Shown here: one piece after another, positions 5,126 to 28,307 of the stretch | Position numbering within the stretch: position 1 is the stretch's first letter | How the letters are laid out: each line of letters starts with the position of its first letter | Assembly (NCBI GenBank): GCA_964386675.1 | Contig: CAYLTB010000001.1 | Span: forward strand, 2,353-66,352 | From: an uncultured Verrucomicrobiota bacterium | GTDB taxonomy: Bacteria > Verrucomicrobiota > Kiritimatiellia > PWTM01 | Length of the DNA stretch: 64,000 nucleotides | Direction: 5' to 3' | Notes under the pieces: generated by a model | Told to the model about the DNA's origin: nothing | The model's database searches: none | What the model saw: the letters and a program-made list of their open reading frames with translations, nothing else | Program-made: the position numbers and the translations under genes

Positions 5126-6876
5126 TCGTCCCGATGAAACGGGTGACGGTGCTGTGTCTGGACTCGGCGCGCGAGGCGACCCTCGAACACCTCCGCGAGC
5201 TGGGGGTGCTCCACCTCGAACACGTCCGGCCCCCGGAGAACGATTCGGTGGAGGCGGCCCGCAAGGATCTGGCGTACTACCGGCGCGCCCTCGAGGTGCT
5301 TCCCGAGCGCTCCGCGGCCGCGCCGTCGGGCCGCCCGCCGCTGGAGATCGTCCGGGCCATCTGGGACTGCATCCATGAGCGCCAGAACCTGATGGAACGG
5401 CTGGAGACGCTGCGTCACGAACGGCAGCGCATCGCGCCGTTCGGCGACTTCGATCCCGCGGCTGCGCGCGCGCTGGCGGGCAAGGGGTTGAGCGTTCGAC
5501 TCTATCAGGTCGAGCCGAAGCAGGAACCCGTGGCGCCGCCCGGGACGGTGCTGCGGGTGCTGGGCCGGACCCGGGAGGCGACCTATTTCGCCGTCATCGG
5601 GCCGGCGGACGCGCCCGCACCGGCGGGCGCCGAAGTGCGGCTGCCGGAGATCGGGCTGGGAGAAATGGACCGGCGAATCGCCGAAGCGGAGTCGGCGCTG
5701 GAACGGAACCGGCTCGCGCTCGAGGTGTTTGCCGGCGACCGCGCCGCGGTGGCGGCGCAGGCCGCGGAGGCGGAAGATCGGATGGCGCTGCTGCAGGCGG
5801 CGGCCGGCATGGGCTCGGCGCAGCGTGTCGCCTGGTTGCAGGGGTATTGCCCCGAGGACAGCGCCGATTGTATCCGGCAGAGCGCCGCACAGGGCGGCTG
5901 GGGCGTGCTGATCGAGACGCCGAAGGACGGCGAGCCCGTTCCGACCCTGATCCGCAATCCGCGCTGGGTCCGGCCGATTCAGGCGATCTTCCGGCTGGTC
6001 GGCATTCTCCCGGGCTACCGCGAAATCGATATCAGCGCCGTGTTCCTGCTGTTCTTCAGCCTGTTCTTCGCCATGCTCGTCGGCGACGCGGGCTACGGCG
6101 TCCTGTTCCTCGGCCTGACCGTCTGGGCACGGAAGCGGAGGGGCGGCCGGCCGAATCCGGCAATCGCGCTGATGCTGATCATGAGCGTCTGTACGATCGT
6201 CTGGGGTATGCTGACCGGGACCTGGTTCGGCCTGACGTGGCGCCCCCTCGTGCCTTCGCTGACCCGAAACGAGACCGTGATGGGGCTGTGCTTCCTGATC
6301 GGCGCGGTGCAATTGAGCATCGCGCACGTCTGGAATATGGCGCGCCAGCGGCGCTCGCCGCAGGCGTTCGCGCAGCTCGGCTGGCTGGCCATCACGTGGG
6401 TGATGTATTTCGCGGCCAACGCGATGGTATTGAACCGGCCCTTTCCGCGCTTCATGCTGGGCGCGCTGGCGGGCGGGGTGCTGCTGATCGTGCTTTTCAT
6501 GACGCCGGTCAAACAGTTGAAGACCGAGTGGTTCAATCATGTGATGCTGCCGCTGAACCTCGTCAGCAGCTTCGTGGACATCGTTTCGTATATCCGCCTC
6601 TTTGCGGTGGGCACGGCGACCGTGTCGGTGGCGCAGGCCTTCAACAACATCGCGCTGGGCAGCGGCGGCCCGATCGGACTGGGCCGCGGAGTCGCGGCGG
6701 CGCTGATTCTTTTTGTCGGCCACGCCTTGAACCTCGTACTGGCCGGCATGGGCGTGATCGTCCACGGCGTGCGGCTGAACACGCTGGAGTTTTCGGGGCA
6801 CCTGGGGATGCAGTGGACCGGACTGCCCTACCGGCCGTTCGCGCGGGCGGCGGGCGCGTCCGAGGACAAGATATAG
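5122..6876 (+). CDS. atpI: V-type ATP synthase subunit I (a subunit)
   Basis: An ATGA overlap joins it to atpD. The N-terminal half is soluble and the C-terminal half is polytopic membrane protein (FFAMLVGDAGYG... multiple TM segments), as expected for subunit I/a. Confidence 0.85.
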   Translation: MIVPMKRVTVLCLDSAREATLEHLRELGVLHLEHVRPPENDSVEAARKDLAYYRRALEVLPERSAAAPSGRPPLEIVRAIWDCIHERQNLMERLETLRHERQRIAPFGDFDPAAARALAGKGLSVRLYQVEPKQEPVAPPGTVLRVLGRTREATYFAVIGPADAPAPAGAEVRLPEIGLGEMDRRIAEAESALERNRLALEVFAGDRAAVAAQAAEAEDRMALLQAAAGMGSAQRVAWLQGYCPEDSADCIRQSAAQGGWGVLIETPKDGEPVPTLIRNPRWVRPIQAIFRLVGILPGYREIDISAVFLLFFSLFFAMLVGDAGYGVLFLGLTVWARKRRGGRPNPAIALMLIMSVCTIVWGMLTGTWFGLTWRPLVPSLTRNETVMGLCFLIGAVQLSIAHVWNMARQRRSPQAFAQLGWLAITWVMYFAANAMVLNRPFPRFMLGALAGGVLLIVLFMTPVKQLKTEWFNHVMLPLNLVSSFVDIVSYIRLFAVGTATVSVAQAFNNIALGSGGPIGLGRGVAAALILFVGHALNLVLAGMGVIVHGVRLNTLEFSGHLGMQWTGLPYRPFARAAGASEDKI

Positions 6877-15871: not shown

Positions 15872-16848
15872 CCCTGCGCCCCCGCCTGCTCGTGCTGCGC
15901 GGCGGCGCCATCGGCGATTTCGTGCTGACGCTTCCCGTGCTGCAGGCGCTCCGCGCGCAGTGGCCGGAAGCCCACATCGAGGTCGTCGGTTATCCGCACA
16001 TCGCCGAACTGGCCCGTGTGGGAGGCTGGGCGGATCGAATCGAGTCGCTCGACCGGGCGCATTTCGCGCGTTTCTACTCGCTGCGGCCGGAACTCGGCGA
16101 GGAATTGGTCCGCTACGTGCGGTCGTTCGACCTGGCCGTTTCGTTTCTGCACGATCCCGACGGCACCGTCTGCCGCAACCTCAAATCCACCGGCATCCGG
16201 CAGGTGCTGTACGTCTCGCCGGTCGGTCCCGCGATTCACGCGACCGACCATCTGCTCCGGGCATTGGAGGCGCTGGCGATCTATGCGGCCGGCACCGCGC
16301 CCCGTCTCAACTGGCCGGCCGCCGCAGTAGCGGAGGGCCGCGCGCGCCTGGCCGCCGCGGGCGTCACCGGCGCGCCGCTGGCGCTGCACGCGGGCAGCGG
16401 AAGTCCGTCCAAAAACTGGCCGGCGGGCCGGTTCGCGGAACTCGCCCGCGCGGCGCGCGACTCCGGTTGGGCGCCCTTCTTTCTCTGGGGCGAGGCTGAC
16501 GCGGTTCCGGCCGAGGCGCTGCACGCGGCCCTCCCGGATGTTCCACAGGTTACGGGACTCGAGTTGGTGGACGCGGCTTCCGTGCTGGCGGCATCCGCGG
16601 CCTATGTCGGCAACGATTCGGGAATCACGCACCTGGCGGCGGCGCTCGGTTGTCCCACCGTGGCGATCTTTGGACCGAGCGATCCCGCGATCTGGGGGCC
16701 GCGGGGCGACAACGTTACCGTGCTGCGCGCGCCCGGCGGACGACTCGCCGACTTGACGGCGATCCGCGTATGCGCTGCGCTCAGCGCCGCGGCATCGCCT
16801 GGGCCGCCGCGATCCGCATGGCCGGAACCGCCTCCACCGGGACGGTGA
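15868..16848 (+). CDS. glycosyltransferase family 9 (ADP-heptose:LPS heptosyltransferase-like)
   Basis: LLVLRGGAIGDFVLTLPVLQALRAQWPEAHIEVVGYPHIAEL matches the N-terminus of RfaF/RfaC-type heptosyltransferases. The C-terminal part GNDSGITHLAAALGCPTVAIFGPSDP is the conserved GT9 motif. Confidence 0.8.
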   Translation: MTLRPRLLVLRGGAIGDFVLTLPVLQALRAQWPEAHIEVVGYPHIAELARVGGWADRIESLDRAHFARFYSLRPELGEELVRYVRSFDLAVSFLHDPDGTVCRNLKSTGIRQVLYVSPVGPAIHATDHLLRALEALAIYAAGTAPRLNWPAAAVAEGRARLAAAGVTGAPLALHAGSGSPSKNWPAGRFAELARAARDSGWAPFFLWGEADAVPAEALHAALPDVPQVTGLELVDAASVLAASAAYVGNDSGITHLAAALGCPTVAIFGPSDPAIWGPRGDNVTVLRAPGGRLADLTAIRVCAALSAAASPGPPRSAWPEPPPPGR

Positions 16849-18718
16849 TCCCGACGATGCCGGCGCGCGCGCAGAAACGCAGGCCGGCGAGGTCGTCCGG
16901 AGCAAGACCGCGCGCCCAAACGGCGATGTCGTGCCGCACGGATCGCGCCTTTCGCACCGCCGTTTCCAGCAACTGGCCGACGCCGTCGATGTCGAATTCC
17001 TCGGGCCGCGCATCCGCGGACTCGGCGGATTGACCCCGGCAGGCGCGCGTCAGCCGCGGCACATCCAGCAACAGCAGTTCGGCATACTCGGCCCAACGGT
17101 CCGCGAGCAGCGCGTCGCGCGGGGTCGCCACCAGATATCCGCGGCAATGCGACAACGCGCCGTCCGGCCATGCCCCGTTCGCCGAGACGAGCAACCAGCC
17201 GATGCCGGCGGGGGGGGCGGACAGCGGCCCCGCGGTCTCGATAAGCACCGGCAGTCCCCGCGCGGCCGTGCGGCAGGCCTCGGCCGTCCGCCGTTCGCGC
17301 GCGGCGCGCGGCGCCGCATCCTCGGCCGCGGCCGCCGGTCGAAACACAATGCCGTCTGCCGCCAGCCGCCGCGCCATCCGAATCCCGCCAAGGTCGTCGG
17401 TTTCTGCGTGGATCGCCGGCCGTCCCGGTTTCAAGGACCATTCACAAAGGGTGCGGTAGAGCTCAAAGTCGGGATGTCGGCCGGCAGCCCGCGCGCCCCG
17501 TCGGAAGGCCTCGAGCAGCGAGCGGGCGCGCGCGCCGCCCGCCGGCTGCGGTTCGCTCCAGAACTGACGGATGTCCTCGGCGGTCAGGCCGGCGAGCGCC
17601 TCGTCGCGCGTCAGCAGCGCCGGCTCGCCGCGCTCCGCAGCCATATCCACCGCCCACCGCACGGCGGCGCGCCCGGCCCGGCGGGCCGGAGCGGCGTCCG
17701 TCACGACCAGTCGGCCGCTTTCGATTACGAACCGCGCCTCGTGGGGATAATGCCAGCGGCGTTCCAGGGCGCGCAACACGGCCAGCACTTCCGCGTGAGC
17801 GTGGCGCAGCATTTCCGACGGCTCCAGCGCTAGCCGCTCCAGCGGCGCCGGCGCCGCGTCCGCCGTCTCGAAGTCATCCTCCTGCGCGCGGACCAGATAG
17901 TGGCCGACCGGTCGGTCCTCGCCGGTCAACGGATCCCGCGATACCGCCCGCACGACGGCGGAGTCGCCATCCAGATGGCCATACGCCATGGCGCAGACCG
18001 TGACGGCGACGCCGAGCGGCGGAGCGCCCCGTGCGCCGGCCGCCCTGCGGCCGTCGCCGTCGCGCCGCCACCGCTCGTAGGCGGCCAGCAGCACGGTCCG
18101 CAGTTGCTCGGACGGGTCTTGCGGAAAAGGTCGGCCGGTGCGCTCGAAAAAGACGCGCTTGTATAAGTCGCAAAGCTCCCGCAGACAGGCGGCATCGAGC
18201 GCGCGTTCGTCCGCCGCGCGATACTTCAGCAGCAACCGTCGCCGCGCCGTTTCGAAGTCGGCCTCCCGGCAGCCGGCGACGATGACCCCGTAGCGGCGCA
18301 GCAGGCGACGATAGGCGTCCCAGGCGGCCCGCTCGCTGCCGACGGCGGTCGCGAATCCCGGCACGGAGCGGTCGTTCAGACCCAGATTGCCGATCGGCGG
18401 CACGCCGGCCTCCCCGCTGTCCACGGAGACCAGCAAGGGCCGCGCGGGATATCCGAAGCGGGCGCCCCCGGCGCCGTCCAGCGAACGCAACCGATCCCGT
18501 AATTCGTCGGCAAAACGCGGCGGCCACCGACGCTGGTGGCGGTCCAAGTAGGCGCACACTTCAGCGGAGACGGTGAACCCCGACGGCGTCGGCAGCCGAG
18601 CCGCACTCAGCTCCGCCAGCCGCGCACCGCGCGCGCCGAGCAACAAGCGGGGCGTACGTCCGGTCTCGCCGCCACCAACAGCGGCGCCAAAGGGGAAGAT
18701 ATATTGGCGATCGGCCAT
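16781..18718 (-). CDS. PEP/pyruvate-binding (PPDK_N-like) domain protein lacking the phosphohistidine swivel domain
   Basis: The start MADRQYIFPFGAAVGGGETGRTPRLLLGARGARLAELSAARLPTPSGFTVS matches the PPDK/PEP-synthase nucleotide-binding N-terminus (KYIFPF..GGKGANLAEM..LPVPPGFTI). No GGxTSHAAI phosphohistidine motif was seen downstream. The start was chosen at the Met preceding the conserved block. Confidence 0.55.
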   Translation of the reverse strand: MADRQYIFPFGAAVGGGETGRTPRLLLGARGARLAELSAARLPTPSGFTVSAEVCAYLDRHQRRWPPRFADELRDRLRSLDGAGGARFGYPARPLLVSVDSGEAGVPPIGNLGLNDRSVPGFATAVGSERAAWDAYRRLLRRYGVIVAGCREADFETARRRLLLKYRAADERALDAACLRELCDLYKRVFFERTGRPFPQDPSEQLRTVLLAAYERWRRDGDGRRAAGARGAPPLGVAVTVCAMAYGHLDGDSAVVRAVSRDPLTGEDRPVGHYLVRAQEDDFETADAAPAPLERLALEPSEMLRHAHAEVLAVLRALERRWHYPHEARFVIESGRLVVTDAAPARRAGRAAVRWAVDMAAERGEPALLTRDEALAGLTAEDIRQFWSEPQPAGGARARSLLEAFRRGARAAGRHPDFELYRTLCEWSLKPGRPAIHAETDDLGGIRMARRLAADGIVFRPAAAAEDAAPRAARERRTAEACRTAARGLPVLIETAGPLSAPPAGIGWLLVSANGAWPDGALSHCRGYLVATPRDALLADRWAEYAELLLLDVPRLTRACRGQSAESADARPEEFDIDGVGQLLETAVRKARSVRHDIAVWARGLAPDDLAGLRFCARAGIVGITVPVEAVPAMRIAAAQAMPRR

Positions 18719-18903
18719 GGGGCGCCGCGCGCGCTCCGACCGAATCGCGCGGCGGGTCCAACCTAGCATATCGGCGCCCTGCGGCCAAGATCCCGCGCGG
18801 ATGTTTTCGCTTGCCTGTTGCGGGGAATCGGTTACCGTGCTAGCCCGCACGGAGACGTGTTCTGCCGGAAAATCCGGCGGCAGCGCAGAAAGAGGTATTT
18901 TGC

Positions 18904-19848
18904 ATGAAGATGACCCGTTGGCTGGCCGCGGCGGTTGCCGCGTTGCCCTTGGCGCGCGCCGGGGCCGGACCGATCGAACCCAAGCGTGTCCCCGAGAACG
19001 CGGTCTGGGTCGTGCATCTCGACGTGGAACGGCTGAAACAGACCGAGGTCGGCAAGTTCCTGATGGAGCAACTGAAGACGCCCGACGCGGAGCGCCAGCT
19101 CGCCGCCGCGCGCACGGTGTTCGATTTCGATCCGCGCGAGAACCTGCTGACGATGACGCTTTTCGGCAACGACTTCAAAAACCCCGCCGTCGTTGCATTG
19201 GTGCAGGGCAAATTCGACGCCGAACGGCTCGCGACCCTCGCGGGCGGACAACCCAACTATCTGCAGAGCGACTACGCGGGCAGCATTGTGCATCAGTGGG
19301 ACGACCGCAACAACGGCCGGACCATGTTCGCCGCCTTTCCCGCCGAGGGATGGATCGCGGCGGGGTCCGACGGGGAAGCGCTGAAGGCGGCGCTGGACGT
19401 CCTGGGCGCGCGAAAGCCTTCCATGGCGGGCAAGGCCGGATCGTTCCTGCCCGCGCCGTCGAATAACCTGCCGATGCTGACGATCGCGCTTTCGCTGGCG
19501 AACGCCGAGTTGGGCGCCGACGCGCCGCCCGCCGTCAAGGAGGCGCGGTCTGGAGCGCTGACGATCACGGAACTGGCCGGCGAAGTGAGTCTGGACGTCG
19601 CGGTCGAGTTCGCCAACGTCGAGCGGGCCGCCCAGGTGCGAGACCTGGCGGCGGGTTTCGTTGCAATGGCAGCGATGAACGCGCAGGAGAATCCGGAACT
19701 GGCGGAGCTGGCCCAGAAAGCGCAGATCACACTCGATGGCGCGACGGCGCGCCTGCGGCTGCGGATGCCGGCCGCCAAGCTGCGGGAAGCGGTGTTGAAG
19801 ACTATGCAGGAGCAAGCGCCGGCGCCCGCGCCGGCACCGGACCGCTGA
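18904..19848 (+). CDS. secreted hypothetical protein
   Basis: A signal peptide (MKMTRWLAAAVAALPLARAGAG) is followed by 314 aa with no recognised family and a C-terminal (AP)n tail. Confidence 0.5.
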   Translation: MKMTRWLAAAVAALPLARAGAGPIEPKRVPENAVWVVHLDVERLKQTEVGKFLMEQLKTPDAERQLAAARTVFDFDPRENLLTMTLFGNDFKNPAVVALVQGKFDAERLATLAGGQPNYLQSDYAGSIVHQWDDRNNGRTMFAAFPAEGWIAAGSDGEALKAALDVLGARKPSMAGKAGSFLPAPSNNLPMLTIALSLANAELGADAPPAVKEARSGALTITELAGEVSLDVAVEFANVERAAQVRDLAAGFVAMAAMNAQENPELAELAQKAQITLDGATARLRLRMPAAKLREAVLKTMQEQAPAPAPAPDR

Positions 19849-20288: not shown

Positions 20289-21272
20289 ATGCGCAACGCA
20301 ACAAAGACGGTGCTTGCGGCCGCCGTGACTTTCGCGGCCGCCGTCGCACGCGGAGAAGGCAAAGTGGATCCGAGATTGCCGGAATACAAACCCGCACAGG
20401 GCGTTTCCGGCGCCATCAAGAGCGTCGGATCGGACACCATGAACAACTTGATGACGCTCTGGGCCGAGGGGTTCATGGCCTTCTATCCGAACGTGCAGAT
20501 CGAGATCGAAGGAAAAGGCTCTTCGACCGCGCCGCCCGCGTTGATCGCCGGGACGGCCCAGTTCGGCCCGATGAGCCGGATGATGAAGGCCAAGGAAATC
20601 GAGGACTTCGAGAAGAAGTATGGCTACCCGCCGACGGAACTGCGGACGGGGGTGGACGTGTTGGCGGTCTACGTCAACAAGGACAACCCGATCAAGGGAC
20701 TCACGCTCCCACAGGTGGACGCCATCTTCAGCTCGACGCGCCGGGGCGGGTGGACCGCGGATATCCGGACCTGGGGTGATGCGGGACTGGACGGCGCCTG
20801 GGCGACCCGTCCGATCAGCCTCTACGGCCGCAACGCGGCCTCCGGCACATACGGCTTCTTTAAGGACCATGCCCTGTTCGGCGGCGACTTCCGGGATTCG
20901 GTGAAGGAGCAACCCGGCAGCGCTTCCGTGGTGCAGGGAGTGGCGAGCGAACTCGCCGGCATCGGGTACAGCGGGATCGGTTACCGGACGGCCGACGTCC
21001 GACCCGTGCCGCTGGCCAGGGACGCCGGCAGTCCGTACTTCGAGGCCAATGCGGAAAACGCCTATAACGGCAACTATCCGCTCGCGCGGTTCCTTTACGT
21101 TTATATCAACGTGAAACCCGGCGAGGTGCTCGACCCGTTGCGCCGCGAGTTCGTCCGGTACATCTTCAGCCGCCAAGGGCAGGAAGACGTCATCCGCGAC
21201 GGTTACCTCCCGATCGACGCCACTGTTGCCCGTGAGATGCTGAAGGCCATTGGCATCCAAGCGGAGTTCTAA
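20289..21272 (+). CDS. pstS: phosphate ABC transporter substrate-binding protein PstS
   Basis: A signal peptide precedes SGAIKSVGSDTMNNLMTLWAEGFMAFYPNVQIEIEGKGSSTAPPALIAGTAQFGPMSR, a PstS/PBP-type phosphate-binding fold. It is the first gene of pstSCAB. Confidence 0.85.
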   Translation: MRNATKTVLAAAVTFAAAVARGEGKVDPRLPEYKPAQGVSGAIKSVGSDTMNNLMTLWAEGFMAFYPNVQIEIEGKGSSTAPPALIAGTAQFGPMSRMMKAKEIEDFEKKYGYPPTELRTGVDVLAVYVNKDNPIKGLTLPQVDAIFSSTRRGGWTADIRTWGDAGLDGAWATRPISLYGRNAASGTYGFFKDHALFGGDFRDSVKEQPGSASVVQGVASELAGIGYSGIGYRTADVRPVPLARDAGSPYFEANAENAYNGNYPLARFLYVYINVKPGEVLDPLRREFVRYIFSRQGQEDVIRDGYLPIDATVAREMLKAIGIQAEF

Positions 21273-21296
21273 CCTCGAATCCTGGGAGCCAGAAAA

Positions 21297-21626
21297 ATGA
21301 ACCGTTCATGGATTCTTTCCGTGATGGCGGCTGCCGCCGCGGCGGCATTTGCCGCGACGCCCGAGACCCCGCCGGTCCCGCCCGCTACACCCGCCACGCC
21401 AGACGCGCCGGCCGCGAAGAAGAACTATGACAAGCCGGGTTTCGCGACCGCGCTGGACAAGCACGGCCGGTTGTGGGTCTTTCGAGCCGACTCGAAGGAA
21501 TGGGCCGAGTTTCGGGAGAAGGGCGAGCCGGCCAAGCAGGTGGTCCGCCCGCGGTCCGGACCGGACGGACTGACACTGAAGGCGCCCGACGCCGAAACGC
21601 TTGACGCCTATCTGGCGGCCGAATAG
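21297..21626 (+). CDS. small secreted Pro-rich hypothetical protein
   Basis: A 109-aa protein with a signal peptide (MNRSWILSVMAAAAAAAFA) and a PVPPATPATPDAP stretch, lying between pstS and pstC. Confidence 0.4.
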   Translation: MNRSWILSVMAAAAAAAFAATPETPPVPPATPATPDAPAAKKNYDKPGFATALDKHGRLWVFRADSKEWAEFREKGEPAKQVVRPRSGPDGLTLKAPDAETLDAYLAAE

Positions 21627-21745
21627 TCGGTCAGCTTCGGACAAAAGAAAACGCGCGCCGCGGGCGCGCGGGCCCGCGGCCCGCGCGCACCGCGGCTGTC
21701 AAACAGCGAGACGCAAAGGGCCGGGGGGAATCGGCGGCGAAGGCC

Positions 21746-24349
21746 ATGGAAACGCAGGCGCAGAAGTCGTTCACAGGACGCACCCGGGACCGGCGCACCC
21801 GGCCGATCGTCAAGGTCATGGACCGGGTGGCCCGTGGATTCATCGCCTTCGGCGGCATCAGCACGATCGTCGCCGTGGCTACGGTGTGCGTTTTCCTGGT
21901 TGCAGTGGTCGTTCCGCTGTTTCGGCCGTCTCGCGTGGCCGAAGCCGGCTTCGCCGTCCTCGATTTCGTGCACGCGCGCACGCCGGCCCGCCTGGCCGTC
22001 GACGAATACGGCGTCCTGGCATGGATTGCATTCCGCGACGGCGGACTGGTGGCCTTCGAACTCGAAACCGGCAAGCCGTTGGGGGACGAGGTGCGCCCGT
22101 TCGGCGACGCGGCGCCCACGGCGTGGAGCTTCAATATCGAGGGAGCCGATTTTTGCGTCGGATTCGACGACGGCACCGTTCGTCTCGGCGCGGCGGAGGT
22201 GCAGGTGGATTTCATCAGCGAGGCGCAGGCGCCGCCGTCGGTGCGGGACACGCCGATCGGTGGGCGCGCGCGCCACGGGGATGCGGTGTATGTGCACACC
22301 CAGCCGGGCCAGTTTCGCCGGCACAGCTTCCGCGTCGGCCTGCGTCCGCCGCTCGCCGTGGGCGCGGACCCCATCCGCCAGGTGGGCCACACAACGCGGT
22401 CCGACGGTTCCATCGTCGCGGTGCTCTCGGGCGAGACGCTGACCGTCAACCACGTGACGGAAATCCGGAACCTGTTGACCGGCGAGTCCACGTCCCGCGC
22501 GCGCCGGACGGATGTTCCGTATGCACTGCAGCCCGAGCATGGCGAGCCGTCGCACCTGCTGCTTTCGCGCCTGGGCGACCAGTTGTACGTCGTCTGGGAG
22601 GACGGTTACGCGCGCCGCTACGACACGCGGGATACGGCCCGGCCGAGCTTTGCCCAGGAATTGCGGATGACGGACGCACCGGGGGAGCGCCTCACAGCGC
22701 TCGGTTTTCTGCTGGGCCGGACCACGCTGCTCTCGGGCGACTCCGAAGGCCGGGTCCGCGCTTGGTTCACCGTGCCGGACGCGCAGTCTCCGGACGGGCT
22801 CCGCCTTGCCCGGACGCGGGACTACAGCAGCGGCCGCGCCGCTGTGGAATCGCTGGCAACGTCGCCCCGGTCGCGGATTGCGGCGGTCGGCTACCGGGAT
22901 GGGCGCGTCGCGTTGTTCCAGGTCACGGCCGATTACCGGATGGCCGAAGGCCGGCTGCCGGGAGGCGCTCCGGCGCTCGCCGTCGCAACCGGCGCGCGCG
23001 GCGACCGGTTTTGCGCGGTCGGCGGTGGCGAATGCCGGACCTGGTCGATTCGCGCCGGGCACCCCGAGATCACCGCGCGCACCCTGTTCGCGCCGGTCTG
23101 GTACGAAGGCTATGCCGAGCCGCGCCATATGTGGCAATCCTCCGCGGGCGTGGATTCGTTCGAGCCGAAGTACGGCATCGTGCCGTTGATCTTCGGGACG
23201 CTCAAGGCGACCTTCTACTCCATGCTTTTCGGCCTGCCGGTCGCGCTGCTCGCCGCCATCTTCACCAGCGAGTTCATGCATCCGCGGGTCAAGATGCGCG
23301 TCAAGCCGGTGATCGAAACGATGGCCAGCCTTCCCAGCGTCGTGCTCGGTTTTCTCTCCGCGCTGGTCATCGCGCCGTGGGCGGAGTTCCGCCTGCCGCA
23401 AGTGCTGACGGCCTTCGCGCTCGTTCCGGCGACCTTCCTGCTGGGCGCCTTCCTGTGGCAACTGCTGCCCCGCGGCTGGGCGCTCCGGCTGGCCCGATGG
23501 CGGATCGTCTTCATGGCCCTGGCGCTGCCCGCGGGCGTCGCGGCGGCGGCCCGGCTGGGGCCGCGGGTCGAGCGCGCGCTGTTCGCCGGCGACATCATGC
23601 GGTGGCTGGACGGCCAGATCGGCGACGGATCGGGCGGGTGGATCGTCCTGCTGTTGCCCCTCGTTGCGGTATCCATCGCCGCGCTGCTGCACGGGCTGGG
23701 CGGGCCGTTCCTGCGCCGGCGCACCGCCCGCTGGACACGGGGCCAGGTCGCGGGGTTCGATCTGGTGCGTTTCGCGGTCGGGGTCCTGCTGACGCTGGGC
23801 GTCGTCGCGCTGCTCGCGCGCGGTCTGACCGCGCTCGGCCTCGATCCGCGCGGCGCGTCGCCCCGGCATTTCCTCGGCACCTACGTGCAGCGCAACGCGC
23901 TCGTCGTCGGCTTCGTCATGGGATTCGCGGTGATACCGATCATCTACACGATCAGTGAAGATGCGTTGAGCGCCGTGCCCGAGCACCTGCGGTCCGCGTC
24001 GCTCGGCGCCGGCGCCACGCCGTGGCAAACGGCGATCCGCATCGTTATTCCTACCGCGACCAGCGGGTTGTTTTCCGCCGCGATGATCGGCCTCGGGCGA
24101 GCGGTCGGCGAGACGATGATCGTGCTGATGGCCGCCGGCAACACGCCGCTGCTGCAGATGAACCTGTTCAACGGATTCCGGACGCTGGCCGCGAACATCG
24201 CCGTCGAACTCTCGGAGGCGCCGGTCGGCGGCACGCACTATCGGACCCTCTTTCTCACGGCGCTGGTGCTCTTCGCCCTGACGTTCGTACTCAATACGGC
24301 GGCGGAACGCGTTCGCGTCCGTTTTCGCAAGAGGGCCTTCAAGTTGTGA
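21746..24349 (+). CDS. pstC: phosphate ABC transporter permease PstC with long N-terminal periplasmic extension
   Basis: The C-terminal ~330 aa contain the ABC permease EAA-like region (EHLRSASLGAGATPWQTAIRIVIPTATSGLFSAAMIGLGRAVGETMIVLMAAGN). The N-terminal ~470 aa are one TM helix plus a beta-rich domain with WD40-like DG(R/T)V(A/R)L repeats. Confidence 0.75.
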   Translation: METQAQKSFTGRTRDRRTRPIVKVMDRVARGFIAFGGISTIVAVATVCVFLVAVVVPLFRPSRVAEAGFAVLDFVHARTPARLAVDEYGVLAWIAFRDGGLVAFELETGKPLGDEVRPFGDAAPTAWSFNIEGADFCVGFDDGTVRLGAAEVQVDFISEAQAPPSVRDTPIGGRARHGDAVYVHTQPGQFRRHSFRVGLRPPLAVGADPIRQVGHTTRSDGSIVAVLSGETLTVNHVTEIRNLLTGESTSRARRTDVPYALQPEHGEPSHLLLSRLGDQLYVVWEDGYARRYDTRDTARPSFAQELRMTDAPGERLTALGFLLGRTTLLSGDSEGRVRAWFTVPDAQSPDGLRLARTRDYSSGRAAVESLATSPRSRIAAVGYRDGRVALFQVTADYRMAEGRLPGGAPALAVATGARGDRFCAVGGGECRTWSIRAGHPEITARTLFAPVWYEGYAEPRHMWQSSAGVDSFEPKYGIVPLIFGTLKATFYSMLFGLPVALLAAIFTSEFMHPRVKMRVKPVIETMASLPSVVLGFLSALVIAPWAEFRLPQVLTAFALVPATFLLGAFLWQLLPRGWALRLARWRIVFMALALPAGVAAAARLGPRVERALFAGDIMRWLDGQIGDGSGGWIVLLLPLVAVSIAALLHGLGGPFLRRRTARWTRGQVAGFDLVRFAVGVLLTLGVVALLARGLTALGLDPRGASPRHFLGTYVQRNALVVGFVMGFAVIPIIYTISEDALSAVPEHLRSASLGAGATPWQTAIRIVIPTATSGLFSAAMIGLGRAVGETMIVLMAAGNTPLLQMNLFNGFRTLAANIAVELSEAPVGGTHYRTLFLTALVLFALTFVLNTAAERVRVRFRKRAFKL

Positions 24350-26307
24350 ATACCACGGTGGATGCCCGGTCGGAGTCCGGCCGCCGCCTCAGTCGCGACA
24401 GCGTCGCGCTGCTCGCCCACGGCGAGCCGGCCGTGTGGCTGATGGGCGGCGGGCTGGTGCTGGCGTTGGCGATGATCCTGGGCCTGCTGGTCTTCGTCTT
24501 CTATCAGGGCGTTTCTACGCTCTGGCCGCGCCGGGTCGAGCGCATCACGCTGCGGGACGGCCGCGTTCACATGGGCGAAGTGACGCGCGACGACCGCTAT
24601 CGCCCGTCCGAGAACGTACTGGCGTCGCTGCCGGAGGCGGTCGCCGCCGCCGCTCGCGCCGAGCTGGCCGCCGCCGACGGATGGGCCCACCGGCGGCTGC
24701 TGCGCACCGGCAACTACGAGCTCACCGGTGAACACTTCCAGTGGATCAGCGATTACCAGATCGCCGCCGAGGAATATCCGCCGTGGGCGGTGGTCCTGGA
24801 GCGCATGACCTGGGGTCGGTTCTATGGCATGCCCGTGGGTTTCCAGGTGCTGCATTACCCCGATGAGTTCGGCGACCAGCCCGATCTCGCCGAGCGCCGC
24901 CGGCTCCGTCGAACGCAGGCGCTGCAGATCGCCCGCGAGCTCGGGGCCGACCCGGCGCGCCGCGTACTGATCCAGACCGGCCCGCGGATGGTGGCGCCGG
25001 AGGAGCTGCCGGAGAACGCGATGGTCACGGCCGTCGTCGAAGTCTGGGAGGGGGCGGAATCGGCGTGGGACCAGTTCCTCCGCTGGCACGCCGGCGTGCG
25101 CGAACGCTGGCGCCAGCGGCGGTCGCTGGAGAAGTTCGAAATCGGGCGTATCAACCAGCGCAAGGAGATCGGCCGCCGCCGCCTGCGCGCCGTCGAATTG
25201 CGCCTGGAGCGAATGTTGGCTGCCGCCGGTCCCGACGCCCCCGCCGTTGCGCGAGTCCGCGCCGACCTCGAGCAGGAGCGCGAGGCCTTCGGCCGCCTGG
25301 ACCGCGCCACGGAAGAGGAATTCATCCGCGTCCGCGCCCGGATCGCGGCGCTGAACCGTGAAAACAGCCGCTTCCGGCTGGTGATGGCCACCGCGGACGG
25401 CGCCTCCAAGACCATCGAGCTGGCGGAGATCGTTCGGGGTTATCCGGCCAACCGGCTCACGTTCGCCCAGCGACTGGCCTTGTACGGATCGCGGTGGCGC
25501 GAGTTTCTGCTCGACGACCCCCGCGAGGCCAACATGGAGGGCGGTGTGTTCCCGGCGATCTTCGGCACGGTCGTCATGACGCTCGTCATGAGCCTGGTAG
25601 TCGTTCCCTTCGGCGTGCTGGCGGCGCTGTACCTGCGGGAGTACGCCAAGGCCGGCCCGCTCATTTCCGCCGTGCGGATCGCCGTCAACAACCTGGCGGG
25701 CGTTCCCTCGATCGTGTTCGGCGTCTTCGGGCTGGGCTTTTTCTGCTATTTTGTCGGCGGTCACGTTGACCAGTGGTTCTTCGCGTCGAAGCTGCCCAGT
25801 CCCACCTATGGCACGGGCGGTATCCTGTGGGCGTCGCTCACGCTGGCGCTGATGACCCTGCCGGTGGTGATCGTCGCCACCGAGGAGGCGCTCGCGGCCG
25901 TGCCGGGCTCCATGCGGGAGGGGTCCTATGCCTGCGGCGCGAGCAAATGGCAGACGATCCGCCGCATCGTGCTGCCGCGCGCGATGCCCGGCATCATGAC
26001 GGGCATGATCCTGGCCATGGCGCGCGGCGCCGGCGAGGTGGCCCCGCTGATGCTGGTCGGCGCCGTGAAAATGGCGCCGGAACTCCCGGTGGACAGCGTC
26101 TTTCCCTACCTGCATCCCGAGCGCAGCTTCATGCACCTCGGATTCCATATTTACGACCTGGGTTTTCAGAGCCAGAACAGCGAGGCGGCCAAGCCGATGG
26201 TGTTCACGACCACGCTGCTGCTGATCGCCATCATTGCCGCGTTGAATGTCGCCGCCGTCGTCATCCGCACGCGGTTGCGGCGGCGCTTCCATTCGGGAAC
26301 CTTCTAA
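24346..26307 (+). CDS. pstA: phosphate ABC transporter permease PstA with long N-terminal extension
   Basis: The GTG start overlaps the pstC stop (GTGA). The C-terminal [50 protein letters not shown] is the PstA signature. The N-terminus is one TM helix plus a ~380-aa charged coiled-coil region. Confidence 0.75.
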
Positions 26308-26323
26308 CGAGCACGAGGACACC

Positions 26324-27211
26324 ATGAACGTTGCCATCGCCGATCCTGCCGGGCTGGAGCGCGGAGCCCATTCCGGACGCAATGGCGCCGGGCGGTTGGC
26401 CGCCGTTGCCCGGGGCGAAGCCGTCCCGGCCGAAGTCCACGACGAACTCCACAACGAGCGGCCCGTGCTCGAAATCGAGCGCTTCAACCTCTGGTACGGC
26501 GAGGCGCAGGCGCTCTTTGACCTCTCGATGAATGTGCCGCGCGGCAAAGTGACCGCGCTCATCGGCCCCTCCGGCTGCGGCAAATCCACGCTGCTGCGTT
26601 CCGTCAACCGGTTGAATGACCTGGTGGACGGCGTCCGCATCGAAGGCTCGATGCGGCTGTTGGGACGGGAAATCTACGACCGCGCCGTGGACGCCATCGA
26701 GCTGCGCAAACGCATGGGAATGGTATTTCAGAAATCGAATCCCTTTCCGATGAGCATTTTCGAAAACGTCGTCTATCCGCTGCGGATTGACGGCGAGCGC
26801 AACCGCGCCGTGCTCCAGGAGGTCTGCGAGCGGAGCCTCCGTGGCGCGGCGCTCTGGGACGAGGTCAAAGACCGCCTCCACGAGAGCGCGCTGGGTCTTT
26901 CGGGCGGCCAGCAGCAGCGCCTGTGCATCGCGCGCGCCATCGCCGCGGAGCCCGAGGTGCTGTTGATGGACGAACCCTGCTCCGCGCTGGATCCGATCGC
27001 GACGAACAAAATCGAGGACCTGATAGACCAGTTGCGGGGCGAGTACACCATCCTCATCGTCACCCACAACATGCAGCAGGCGGCCCGCACCAGCGACTAC
27101 ACGGCGTTCATGTACCTGGGGCGGCTGATCGAATACGGCCCTACCGAGAGGATTTTCCAGAAGCCCCGGTTGATCGAAACCTACGATTACGTGACCGGCC
27201 GGTTTGGTTGA
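26324..27211 (+). CDS. pstB: phosphate ABC transporter ATP-binding protein PstB
   Basis: Walker A (GPSGCGKST), ABC signature ([16 protein letters not shown]), Walker B ([11 protein letters not shown]) and the C-terminus typical of PstB are present. The ATG at 26324 is in frame with ORF 26246..27211. Confidence 0.88.
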
Positions 27212-27284
27212 CGGCGCATTTCGCCTGTGCCATAGTGTACCGGTGGCGGCGGCCGAATACGCGGTCCGCCGCCGGGGAAATCTT

Positions 27285-28307
27285 ATGAACATAATCGGTC
27301 GGTGGCTGCGTCGGGGTTCGGCTTGGGCGGGCGTATGGGCGGCGGCCGCGGTGGCGCAAACGCCTGCCGCCCCTTTCCAGGCCCCGCGGGATCTTTTCAC
27401 GCCGGCGCCGAAACCGGATGCCGTGGTCGCTAAAGTCAATGGAACGGCCATTCTCCAGAAGGATGTGGCGCGCGAGGCGGATCGGGCATTCCAGCAGATC
27501 GCGTCGCAGGTGCCGCCCGAACAGGCGGCGGCGGCGCGGCGCCAGCTGGCGCAGCGGGCGCTGGAGGGGCTGATCATCCGGCACCTGTTGCTGATCGGCG
27601 CCGACCAGAAGAAGATCGAGGTGACCCCGGAGGAGATGGCCCAGGTCAAACAGCAGATTCAATCGCAACTTCCGCCGGGACAGACGCTCGATACCCTGCT
27701 CAAGGTCCAGAACGTTACGCCGGAGGAGTTCGAGGTGAACCTGAAACGCGACCTGCGCGTGCAGAAACTGATCGCCTCCATCGCCGAGCCGGTTCCGCCG
27801 CCGACCGCAGAGCAGATTCAGGAATTCTACCAGCAGAACGAGGCGCAGATGCTGGTGCCCGATCAGGTGCGCGCCCGCCACGTGCTCGTCCGGTCCCCGG
27901 AGTCTGATCCGCAGGCGCTGCGCGCGGACAAAAAGGCCAAGGCGGAGGAACTGCGCAAGAAGCTGGTGGCCGGGGCGGATTTCGCCGCGATCGTCCGCGA
28001 GCATTCCGAGGATCCGGGCAGCGCACAGCGCGGGGGCGAGTATGTGTTCGGCCGGGGCCAGATGGTACCCCCGTTCGAACAAGCGGCCTTCACACAGGAA
28101 ATCAATGCCATCGGACCGGTGGTGGAAACCGCTTACGGCTATCATATCATCCAGGTGCTGGAGCGTCGCGAAGCGCATAAGCAGACCCTGGAAGAGGCTT
28201 CCCCGCGGATCGCCCAGTTCCTGCAGAACCGCGACCGCCAGCGGCTGGTCGAGCAATATATCGAGTCGCTCCGCAAGGAAGCGAAGATCGAAACCCTGAA
28301 TCCTTGA
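27285..28307 (+). CDS. SurA/PrsA-like peptidyl-prolyl cis-trans isomerase (parvulin domain)
   Basis: A signal-like N-terminus (MNIIGRWLRRGSAWAGVWAAAAVAQ) is followed by a SurA-like chaperone region. A parvulin rotamase domain is present (HVLVRSPESD...GGEYVFGRGQMVPPFEQAAFTQEINAIGPVVETAYGYHIIQVLERRE). Confidence 0.75.
   Translation: MNIIGRWLRRGSAWAGVWAAAAVAQTPAAPFQAPRDLFTPAPKPDAVVAKVNGTAILQKDVAREADRAFQQIASQVPPEQAAAARRQLAQRALEGLIIRHLLLIGADQKKIEVTPEEMAQVKQQIQSQLPPGQTLDTLLKVQNVTPEEFEVNLKRDLRVQKLIASIAEPVPPPTAEQIQEFYQQNEAQMLVPDQVRARHVLVRSPESDPQALRADKKAKAEELRKKLVAGADFAAIVREHSEDPGSAQRGGEYVFGRGQMVPPFEQAAFTQEINAIGPVVETAYGYHIIQVLERREAHKQTLEEASPRIAQFLQNRDRQRLVEQYIESLRKEAKIETLNP

Follow-up and report, generated by a model that had tools for sequence, protein, structure and literature searches.

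A long-form PstSCAB operon in a Kiritimatiellia genome: predicted periplasmic modules in the first loops of PstC and PstA, and a possible cradle for PstS

Bacteria take up phosphate with high affinity mainly through PstSCAB, an importer that is also linked to virulence. What is known of its mechanism has so far come from the short form found in Escherichia coli, including cryo-electron microscopy (cryo-EM) structures published in 2026. Here we describe the pst operon of an uncultured Verrucomicrobiota bacterium of the class Kiritimatiellia, encoded in a stretch of 64,000 nucleotides of contig CAYLTB010000001.1 (hereafter the window). Five open reading frames (ORFs) occupy positions 20289-27211 of the + strand, in the order pstS, a 109-residue ORF, pstC, pstA and pstB (Table 1). 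All four transporter proteins score above the curated NCBIfam cut-offs of their families, TIGR02136, TIGR02138, TIGR00974 and TIGR00972. PstA reaches 241.8 bits against TIGR00974 (cut-off 193.45) and PstC 200.0 bits against TIGR02138 (cut-off 196.45), the latter match being split into two stretches by an internal insertion. The GTG start codon of pstA overlaps the TGA stop codon of pstC as GTGA, within AAGTTGTGAATA at 24341-24352.

An earlier note on this stretch had pointed out this overlap and the unusual size of the two permeases, and both observations stand: at 867 and 653 residues, PstC and PstA are 2.2 to 2.7 times longer than their E. coli counterparts (319 and 296 residues). The best sequence matches of both proteins in the PDB are the solved E. 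coli PstC and PstA (9k3s). PstC residues 474-546 align to E. coli PstC 67-139 and residues 717-862 to 169-314, while PstA residues 396-571 align to E. coli PstA 73-231. It follows from these offsets that the N-terminal transmembrane (TM) helix of each protein is the canonical TM1, and that the extra modules are insertions in the loop between TM1 and TM2, called P1. The note had correctly seen a single N-terminal helix followed by an additional domain; the modules lie inside the permease, between TM1 and TM2, and not in front of it.

Since the TM1-TM2 loop is periplasmic in the solved E. coli homologue, both inserts are predicted to be periplasmic as well. The positive-inside rule agrees with this placement, with nine Lys or Arg against three Asp or Glu before TM1 of PstC and short cytoplasmic loops rich in Lys and Arg. 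Cytoplasmic, unfolded extensions are ruled out by the alignment to the E. coli proteins and their structure, by the charge counts and by the confident folds of the AlphaFold2 (AF2) models. The prediction agrees with the note in this respect.

The P1 module of PstC is confidently modelled as a seven-bladed WD40-like β-propeller. The AF2 model, made from an alignment of 69 sequences, has a mean predicted local distance difference test (pLDDT) score of 83.5; over residues 60-440 the score is about 90 or higher and the chain is all-β, with about 28 strands. Foldseek retrieves eIF3i, the G-protein β subunit, WDR5 and a Thermomonospora WD40 protein, with E around 4e-13, TM-scores (target-normalised) of 0.6-0.7 and some 380-400 aligned columns. 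The WD40-like, β-rich character that the note had read from the sequence is thus borne out. No propeller model of Pfam matches PstC above its gathering score, the sole match being PF25173 at 18.6 bits for a cut-off of 154; weak precomputed propeller matches are listed for many of its homologues. Conserved residues of the propeller include Q189, R191, N242, R291, R375 and R377, and the invariant ones are mainly Gly, Trp, Asp and Arg. The chain returns to TM2 through a conserved motif in which W452, Y453, E454, W463, Q464, E473 and K475 are invariant.

PstC contains a second insertion, which the note had overlooked. Residues 140-168 of E. coli PstC correspond to residues 547-716 of the window protein, an addition of about 165 residues that holds four extra TM helices, located by hydropathy and in the AF2 model at about 551-572, 586-605, 632-652 and 672-692, and a conserved periplasmic loop, LFAGDI..WLDGQ.G.G.GGW. 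The protein therefore has ten predicted TM helices, six canonical and four inserted, against six in the solved E. coli protein. As the extra helices are even in number, the topology is preserved, and the ten-helix PstC is an elaboration of the PstC family rather than an exclusion from it.

The P1 module of PstA is of a different kind. Its AF2 model has a mean pLDDT of 73.5, rising above 90 over residues 60-390, and shows strands in residues 64-170, 205-235 and 343-367, with a single antiparallel helical hairpin projecting from the β-rich domain. The module had been described as a charged coiled coil of about 380 residues; one helical hairpin of about 104 residues (237-340) is indeed present, but most of the module, about 340 residues in all, is β-rich. 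In 64 PstA homologues the length of the hairpin is nearly constant, at 90-105 residues, which rules it out as the source of the variation in overall length: this comes from the sub-insert at residues 171-236 (6-91 residues) and from the N-terminus. From helix length, and not from the model, we estimate that the two arms of about 58 and 42 residues would measure roughly 65-85 Å if straight. Conserved residues of the insert include R116, R120, N123, H130, W133, W147, E152, R153 and W156. The module has no significant match among the solved structures of the PDB. DUF3333 (PF11812), an N-terminal extension of some PstA proteins, was rejected as its identity, since Pfam finds it neither in the window PstA nor in that of Pseudomonas aeruginosa.

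Table 1 Features of the window pst operon (window coordinates; letters of the palindrome as on the + strand).
Feature	Position	Strand	Basis or remark
pstS, periplasmic phosphate-binding protein, 327 aa	20289..21272	+	PF12849; TIGR02136, 233.5 bits (cut-off 206.6)
Accessory ORF, 109 aa	21297..21626	+	Between pstS and pstC; signal-peptide-like N-terminus
G+C-rich 19-nt palindrome CGCGCGCCGCGGGCGCGCG	21652..21670	.	Pattern match only; in the 119-nt gap between accessory ORF and pstC
pstC, long form, 867 aa, 10 predicted TM helices	21746..24349	+	ORF, NCBIfam, homologues, AF2
PstC TM1, aa ~33-59, canonical TM1 preceded by an Arg-rich cytoplasmic N-terminus	21842..21922	+	Hydropathy, charge count; AF2 helix 20-59
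PstC P1-loop insertion, modelled seven-bladed WD40-like β-propeller, aa ~60-445	21923..23080	+	AF2, Foldseek
PstC pre-TM2 motif VWYEGY...WQSS..D.FEPKYG, leading the chain back to TM2	23081..23173	+	Conservation; alignment to E. coli PstC starts here
PstC second insertion, aa ~549-712, between canonical TM3 and TM4	23390..23881	+	E. coli alignment, hydropathy, AF2, conservation
pstA, long form, 653 aa from GTG, 6 TM helices	24346..26307	+	ORF, NCBIfam, homologues, AF2
PstA P1-loop insertion, aa ~60-396, β-rich (aa 60-170, 341-367) with variable sub-insert aa 171-236	24523..25533	+	AF2, homologue lengths
PstA antiparallel helical hairpin, helices aa 237-294 and 299-340	25054..25365	+	AF2
pstB, ATPase subunit	26321..27211	+	TIGR00972, 393 bits

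The substrate of the system can be deduced from its core. According to the E. coli cryo-EM study (PMC12976172), phosphate specificity is set by R237 of PstC and R220 of PstA. The former corresponds to R785 of the window protein, within GLGRAVGETM, and is invariant in 69 homologues; the latter corresponds to R560 and is invariant in 64. The window PstS is of the TIGR02136 type, as is PstS of P. aeruginosa, to which its sequence is alike by eye. With both selectivity arginines invariant and a PstS of this type, the window system is, as judged from its sequence, a phosphate importer.

The long architecture also occurs in P. aeruginosa. A tblastn search of PLSDB returned a record of this species, NZ_CP070468.1, that matches 85% of the window PstC and carries pstS-pstC-pstA-pstB-phoU, with WP_003123734.1 as PstC and WP_003096667.1 as PstA, annotated as an 'ABC transporter permease subunit' of 677 residues and a PstA of 558. 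Residues 16-626 of the window PstC align to residues 27-605 of the P. aeruginosa protein (29% identity, E 2e-62). This alignment takes in TM1, the entire β-rich insert, the motif before TM2 and two of the extra TM helices, the first and the second; in the C-terminal core, identity is 65%. PstA aligns over residues 21-161 (E 9e-14) and over residues 251-650, with 53% identity. By homology that runs across the P1 inserts and not over the core alone, the window Pst is a Pseudomonas-type long form. The record is labelled a plasmid yet holds the pstSCAB-phoU region, and may be a chromosomal fragment. Its RefSeq PstC coding sequence (L081, 1768-3801; also 'ABC transporter permease subunit' in the PGAP naming) starts within the periplasmic domain and lacks TM1, while the ORF extends upstream (L081:1468-3801) to about 762 residues that include an Arg-rich N-terminus and TM1.

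In 1996, Nikata and co-workers reportedly noticed that PstC and PstA of P. aeruginosa contain long hydrophilic domains, whose deletion from either protein is said to have abolished transport while leaving regulation and taxis intact. We found no paper in the searchable literature that gives a structural description of the long PstC and PstA domains, and what the modules and the accessory domain described below do appears to be unaddressed there. A study of P. aeruginosa PstS from 2016 relies wholly on the E. coli system, as an analogy, to explain the transporter (PMC4926252).

Beyond Pseudomonas, the long form is widespread. Among 8,000 scored candidates, more than 1,170 are PstC homologues with E below 1e-5, the best of them mostly sharing about 50% identity with the window protein. 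All 120 best homologues are 784-914 residues long and cover 91-100% of the query; the best PstA homologues measure 543-765 residues and are as common as long PstC. A scan of one genome per GTDB species, with patterns drawn from the propeller part alone, confirmed at least 588 long-PstC loci in more than ten phyla. The carriers include Planctomycetota (Gemmataceae, Pirellulales, Phycisphaerae, Kuenenia), Verrucomicrobiota and Kiritimatiellales, Acidobacteriota, Nitrospirales, Spirochaetia, Latescibacteria, Krumholzibacteria, Hydrogenedentales, Anaerolineales, Myxococcales, the alphaproteobacteria Rhodomicrobium and Parvibaculum, and, in Desulfobacterota, Geoalkalibacter and the isolate Desulfatitalea alkaliphila. 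Wherever a related locus contains the complete operon, its genes keep the order pstS, long pstC, long pstA, pstB. Many long operons continue after pstB with phoU or response-regulator genes, and a PhoU-like ORF, judged by eye, lies 3' of pstB in at least ten loci.

This survey, which the note had called for, together with the P. aeruginosa operon, rules out an architecture specific to the Planctomycetes-Verrucomicrobia-Chlamydiae (PVC) group. The long form is not new, nor is it confined to PVC bacteria: the genes of the window belong, as typical representatives, to a large family, and the window Pst is not a new kind of system. In a locus of an uncultured Acidobacteria (L061:2808-11823), long pstC-pstA-pstB genes are immediately followed by another set, of the short form, made up of pstS, pstC (291 residues), pstA (281 residues) and pstB; long and short Pst can thus coexist as distinct paralogous systems.

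The ORF between pstS and pstC encodes a protein with a signal-peptide-like stretch at residues 1-22, devoid of a lipobox Cys, and a Pro-rich linker at residues 23-45. Residues 46-109 (nucleotides 21432-21623) form one copy of a domain of about 62 residues that we call GRLWVF, after its motif KPGF.T...DGRLWVFR.GS.EL..F...GE.AK.V.RP.AGP.G.TLKAPD.ET.DAYL. Five basic residues, R58, R63, K80, R84 and K95 in window numbering, are nearly invariant, which hints at the binding of anions as an alternative function. The ORF matches no Pfam or NCBIfam model. Beside long pst operons of other phyla the domain occurs with 55-65% identity; in the two nearest relatives its gene separates pstS from pstC, and in Desulfatitalea, Geoalkalibacter, Kuenenia, Bremerella, Spirochaetia and others it lies directly 3' of pstB (examples of the domain in other loci are L013:13058-13561, L057:13024-13356 and L060:14054-15271). 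Where at least 1 kb is available beyond pstB, 21 of 60 long pst loci adjoin such a gene. The small secreted Pro-rich protein of the earlier note is correctly described in its signal-like N-terminus and its Pro-rich stretch, but it is not an incidental insert: from sequence conservation, GRLWVF is an accessory domain, conserved and as yet unnamed.

Searched with a profile, 1.84 billion cluster representatives yielded 539 GRLWVF members, 372 of them at E ≤ 1e-10. The 182 members retrieved contain one to eight tandem copies, most commonly two, and about half have a lipobox-like motif. In 18 of the 182, an N-terminal domain resembles that of the L008 member, whose own single match, to Cytochrome_P460, stays below the threshold. 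Two fusions connect the domain to phosphate uptake. One member of the representative search (P0392, 481 residues) is a PstS of the TIGR02136 type (206.9 bits) with two GRLWVF copies at its C-terminus. In a Thermoanaerobaculia locus (L062:5415-6743), one copy is fused N-terminally to a Porin_O_P domain (PF07396, E 2.6e-21), and the gene lies directly upstream of pstS, which starts at 6768. Unfused OprP-like porin genes are found just upstream of pstS in five other loci (L004, L012, L022, L028, L052). A tethering role of the domain would agree with these fusions, one to PstS and the other to a phosphate porin.

The palindrome between the accessory ORF and pstC may, from its sequence, form an intra-operon stem-loop that separates the end of a highly expressed pstS from pstCAB. 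A gene for a SurA-like periplasmic chaperone and peptidyl-prolyl isomerase (SurA_N and Rotamase domains) lies on the same strand at 27285-28307, 73 nucleotides 3' of pstB, with a promoter-like site at 27208-27236 that overlaps the pstB stop codon; this gene is not kept beside related pst operons. Neither is a 314-residue, secreted-looking ORF at 18904-19848, for which Pfam gives no match. Further upstream, a 689-residue ORF on the − strand (16781-18850) has no Pfam match at E ≤ 0.001. Other genes near the operon in the window encode a sulfatase, a pilin-like N_methyl protein and a lipid A acyltransferase, a combination in keeping with, though no proof of, a Gram-negative and perhaps PVC bacterium. 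Within about 10 kb on either side of the operon we found neither a phoU nor a porin gene.

In the E. coli complex, each permease has six TM helices and places its TM1, in a swap, against the other permease; in both, loops P1 and P3 rise into the cleft between the lobes of PstS and contact it (PMC12976172). By this topology, TM1 of the long proteins would stand at the periphery of the heterodimer and P1 would run from there to the central region that contacts PstS. Because TM1 wraps the partner subunit and the P1 loops enter the PstS cleft in E. coli, the modules inserted in P1 would lie beside the PstS docking site. We propose, with a probability of about one half and by analogy with the E. 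coli complex, that the inserts of the long PstSCAB constitute a periplasmic cradle, a docking platform for PstS and accessory proteins. The propeller of PstC and the hairpin domain of PstA would flank the docking site and capture, orient or retain phosphate-loaded PstS; the cradle would probably serve as a landing platform for the GRLWVF domain as well. A docking or funnelling scaffold for PstS had been suggested in the earlier note. The position of the modules fits that suggestion, and the contact itself is inferred from E. coli.

Several points weigh against a cradle. The placement of the modules relative to PstS is taken from the E. coli topology alone, and the TM region of PstA is modelled at low confidence (pLDDT about 50). 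A docking role leaves the four extra TM helices of PstC unexplained. The GRLWVF gene stands beside only about a third of the long operons and is absent from that of P. aeruginosa, so the function of propeller and hairpin must not depend on it. Experiments on the PstC and PstA modules were not found in the searchable literature.

There is another possibility, in which the PstA hairpin, the PstC propeller and GRLWVF proteins or lipoproteins physically couple the transporter to an OprP-type porin, so that phosphate is handed across the periplasm through a trans-envelope conduit and does not diffuse freely. Hairpins of adaptor proteins couple efflux pumps to TolC in this way, and Wzc is coupled to Wza. 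The L062 protein, where GRLWVF is the N-terminal periplasmic part of a porin encoded next to pstS, points in this direction, as do the unfused porin genes upstream of pstS, the tightly conserved length of the hairpin, and the lipobox-like motifs and variable repeat number of GRLWVF proteins, the latter as expected of a spacer. We nevertheless consider such a conduit unlikely. A single porin fusion was seen, the accessory gene adjoins 35% of the loci and is missing in P. aeruginosa, no porin gene is near the window operon, and the likeness to adaptor hairpins is generic. In addition, the longer arm of about 58 residues is, by our estimate, too short alone for a typical Gram-negative periplasm. 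A physical bridge to an outer-membrane porin is possible, but thinly supported.

The forms taken by GRLWVF, which occurs free, lipid-anchored in one to eight repeats, or as a fusion with either PstS or an OprP-type porin, could also be those of a dedicated docking module that plugs PstS and an outer-membrane porin onto the propeller, the hairpin or both, making the long Pst a multi-component envelope machine. We regard this as distinctly unlikely; if true, phosphate would travel between outer membrane and transporter along a route that is tethered or channelled.

A purely structural role has to be weighed too: modules and extra TM helices might stabilise the PstC-PstA pair or anchor it in the envelope, for example to peptidoglycan or a particular membrane region, with no direct part in PstS docking or substrate delivery. 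The extra helices of PstC, which cannot contact PstS and must pack against the core, speak for it, and propellers are generic scaffolds. The E. coli complex is held together solely by contacts between PstA and PstC (PMC12976172), so that added interfaces could matter. Yet the inserts occupy the very loops that make contact with PstS in E. coli, the modules carry conserved polar and Arg residues, and the fusion of GRLWVF to PstS itself suggests a connection with the binding protein. We give an exclusively structural role a low probability.

A sensory or regulatory role, in which the modules would signal the state of the envelope or of phosphate to chemoreceptors or the Pho signalling complex and would not aid transport, seems very unlikely to us. 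Pho signalling via Pst passes through cytoplasmic contacts between PstB, PhoU and PhoR, which counts against a periplasmic sensor, as does the deletion phenotype that Nikata and co-workers reportedly saw, a loss of transport but not of regulation or taxis. On the other side, Pst transporters belong to the PhoR-PhoU signalling complex, phoU or response-regulator genes often come after pstB, and PstS of P. aeruginosa has a further signalling partner in the chemoreceptor CtpL (PMC4926252).

The remaining alternatives fare worse. The propeller could be an enzyme, a phosphatase or of the phytase kind, that frees phosphate beside the transporter; β-propeller phytases and the phosphatase PhoX are indeed propeller enzymes of phosphate scavenging. 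But all top structural matches are non-enzymatic seven-bladed WD40 proteins, Pfam gives no match to the phytase or PhoX families, and the invariant residues of the propeller include no conserved metal-binding cluster, which makes an enzymatic role highly improbable. Finally, fused or frameshifted ORFs arising from assembly or annotation can be dismissed almost with certainty: identical architecture and length recur without frameshifts in hundreds of assemblies made independently, complete genomes and isolates among them, so that the extensions are not specific to this contig, the artefact that the note had named as a refutation; the inserts are modelled as confident folds, and the G+C content at third codon positions (GC3), 0.83-0.87 along both long ORFs, is consistent with genuine coding sequence.

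Altogether, many lineages use a form of Pst with about 750 extra residues, predicted to be periplasmic, at the loops that dock PstS in E. coli. It offers several testable objects: a propeller, a hairpin of fixed length, four additional TM helices and an unnamed domain with fusions to PstS and to a porin. P. aeruginosa provides a genetically tractable host for the long form.

Several known systems resemble the long Pst in part. The adaptors AcrA, MexA, EmrA and MacA and the co-polymerases Wzc and KpsE likewise carry a long antiparallel hairpin on a β-rich or α/β periplasmic base, and Wzc shares with PstA the arrangement of a periplasmic domain between TM helices. The P2 loop of MalF in the maltose transporter MalFGK2 offers an analogy to the proposed cradle, being a large folded periplasmic loop of a permease that binds the substrate-binding protein. 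There is no homology, however: P2 lies between TM3 and TM4 of MalF, has an Ig-like fold and is present in one permease of the two.

With E. coli PstSCAB (PDB 9k3s, 9k3x, 9k3y; PMC12976172), the window system shares the permease core, the coupling region, the selectivity arginines, the subunit composition and P1 as the element that reaches PstS, as seen in E. coli. It differs in the size of both permeases, in the TM helix count of PstC and in its P1 insertions, where E. coli has short P1 loops; PstS is also of another type, TIGR00975 in E. coli. The P. aeruginosa PstC has two extra TM helices instead of four, residues ~627-707 of the window protein having no counterpart there; its PstA has a shorter middle region, and its operon lacks the GRLWVF gene and continues with phoU after pstB. 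The two systems agree in operon order and PstS type. Both PstC proteins combine TM1, a β-rich P1 insert of about 400 residues, the motif VWYE.Y/WQS..DFEPK and extra TM helices after TM3, and both PstA proteins consist of TM1, a β domain, a helical hairpin and the permease core.

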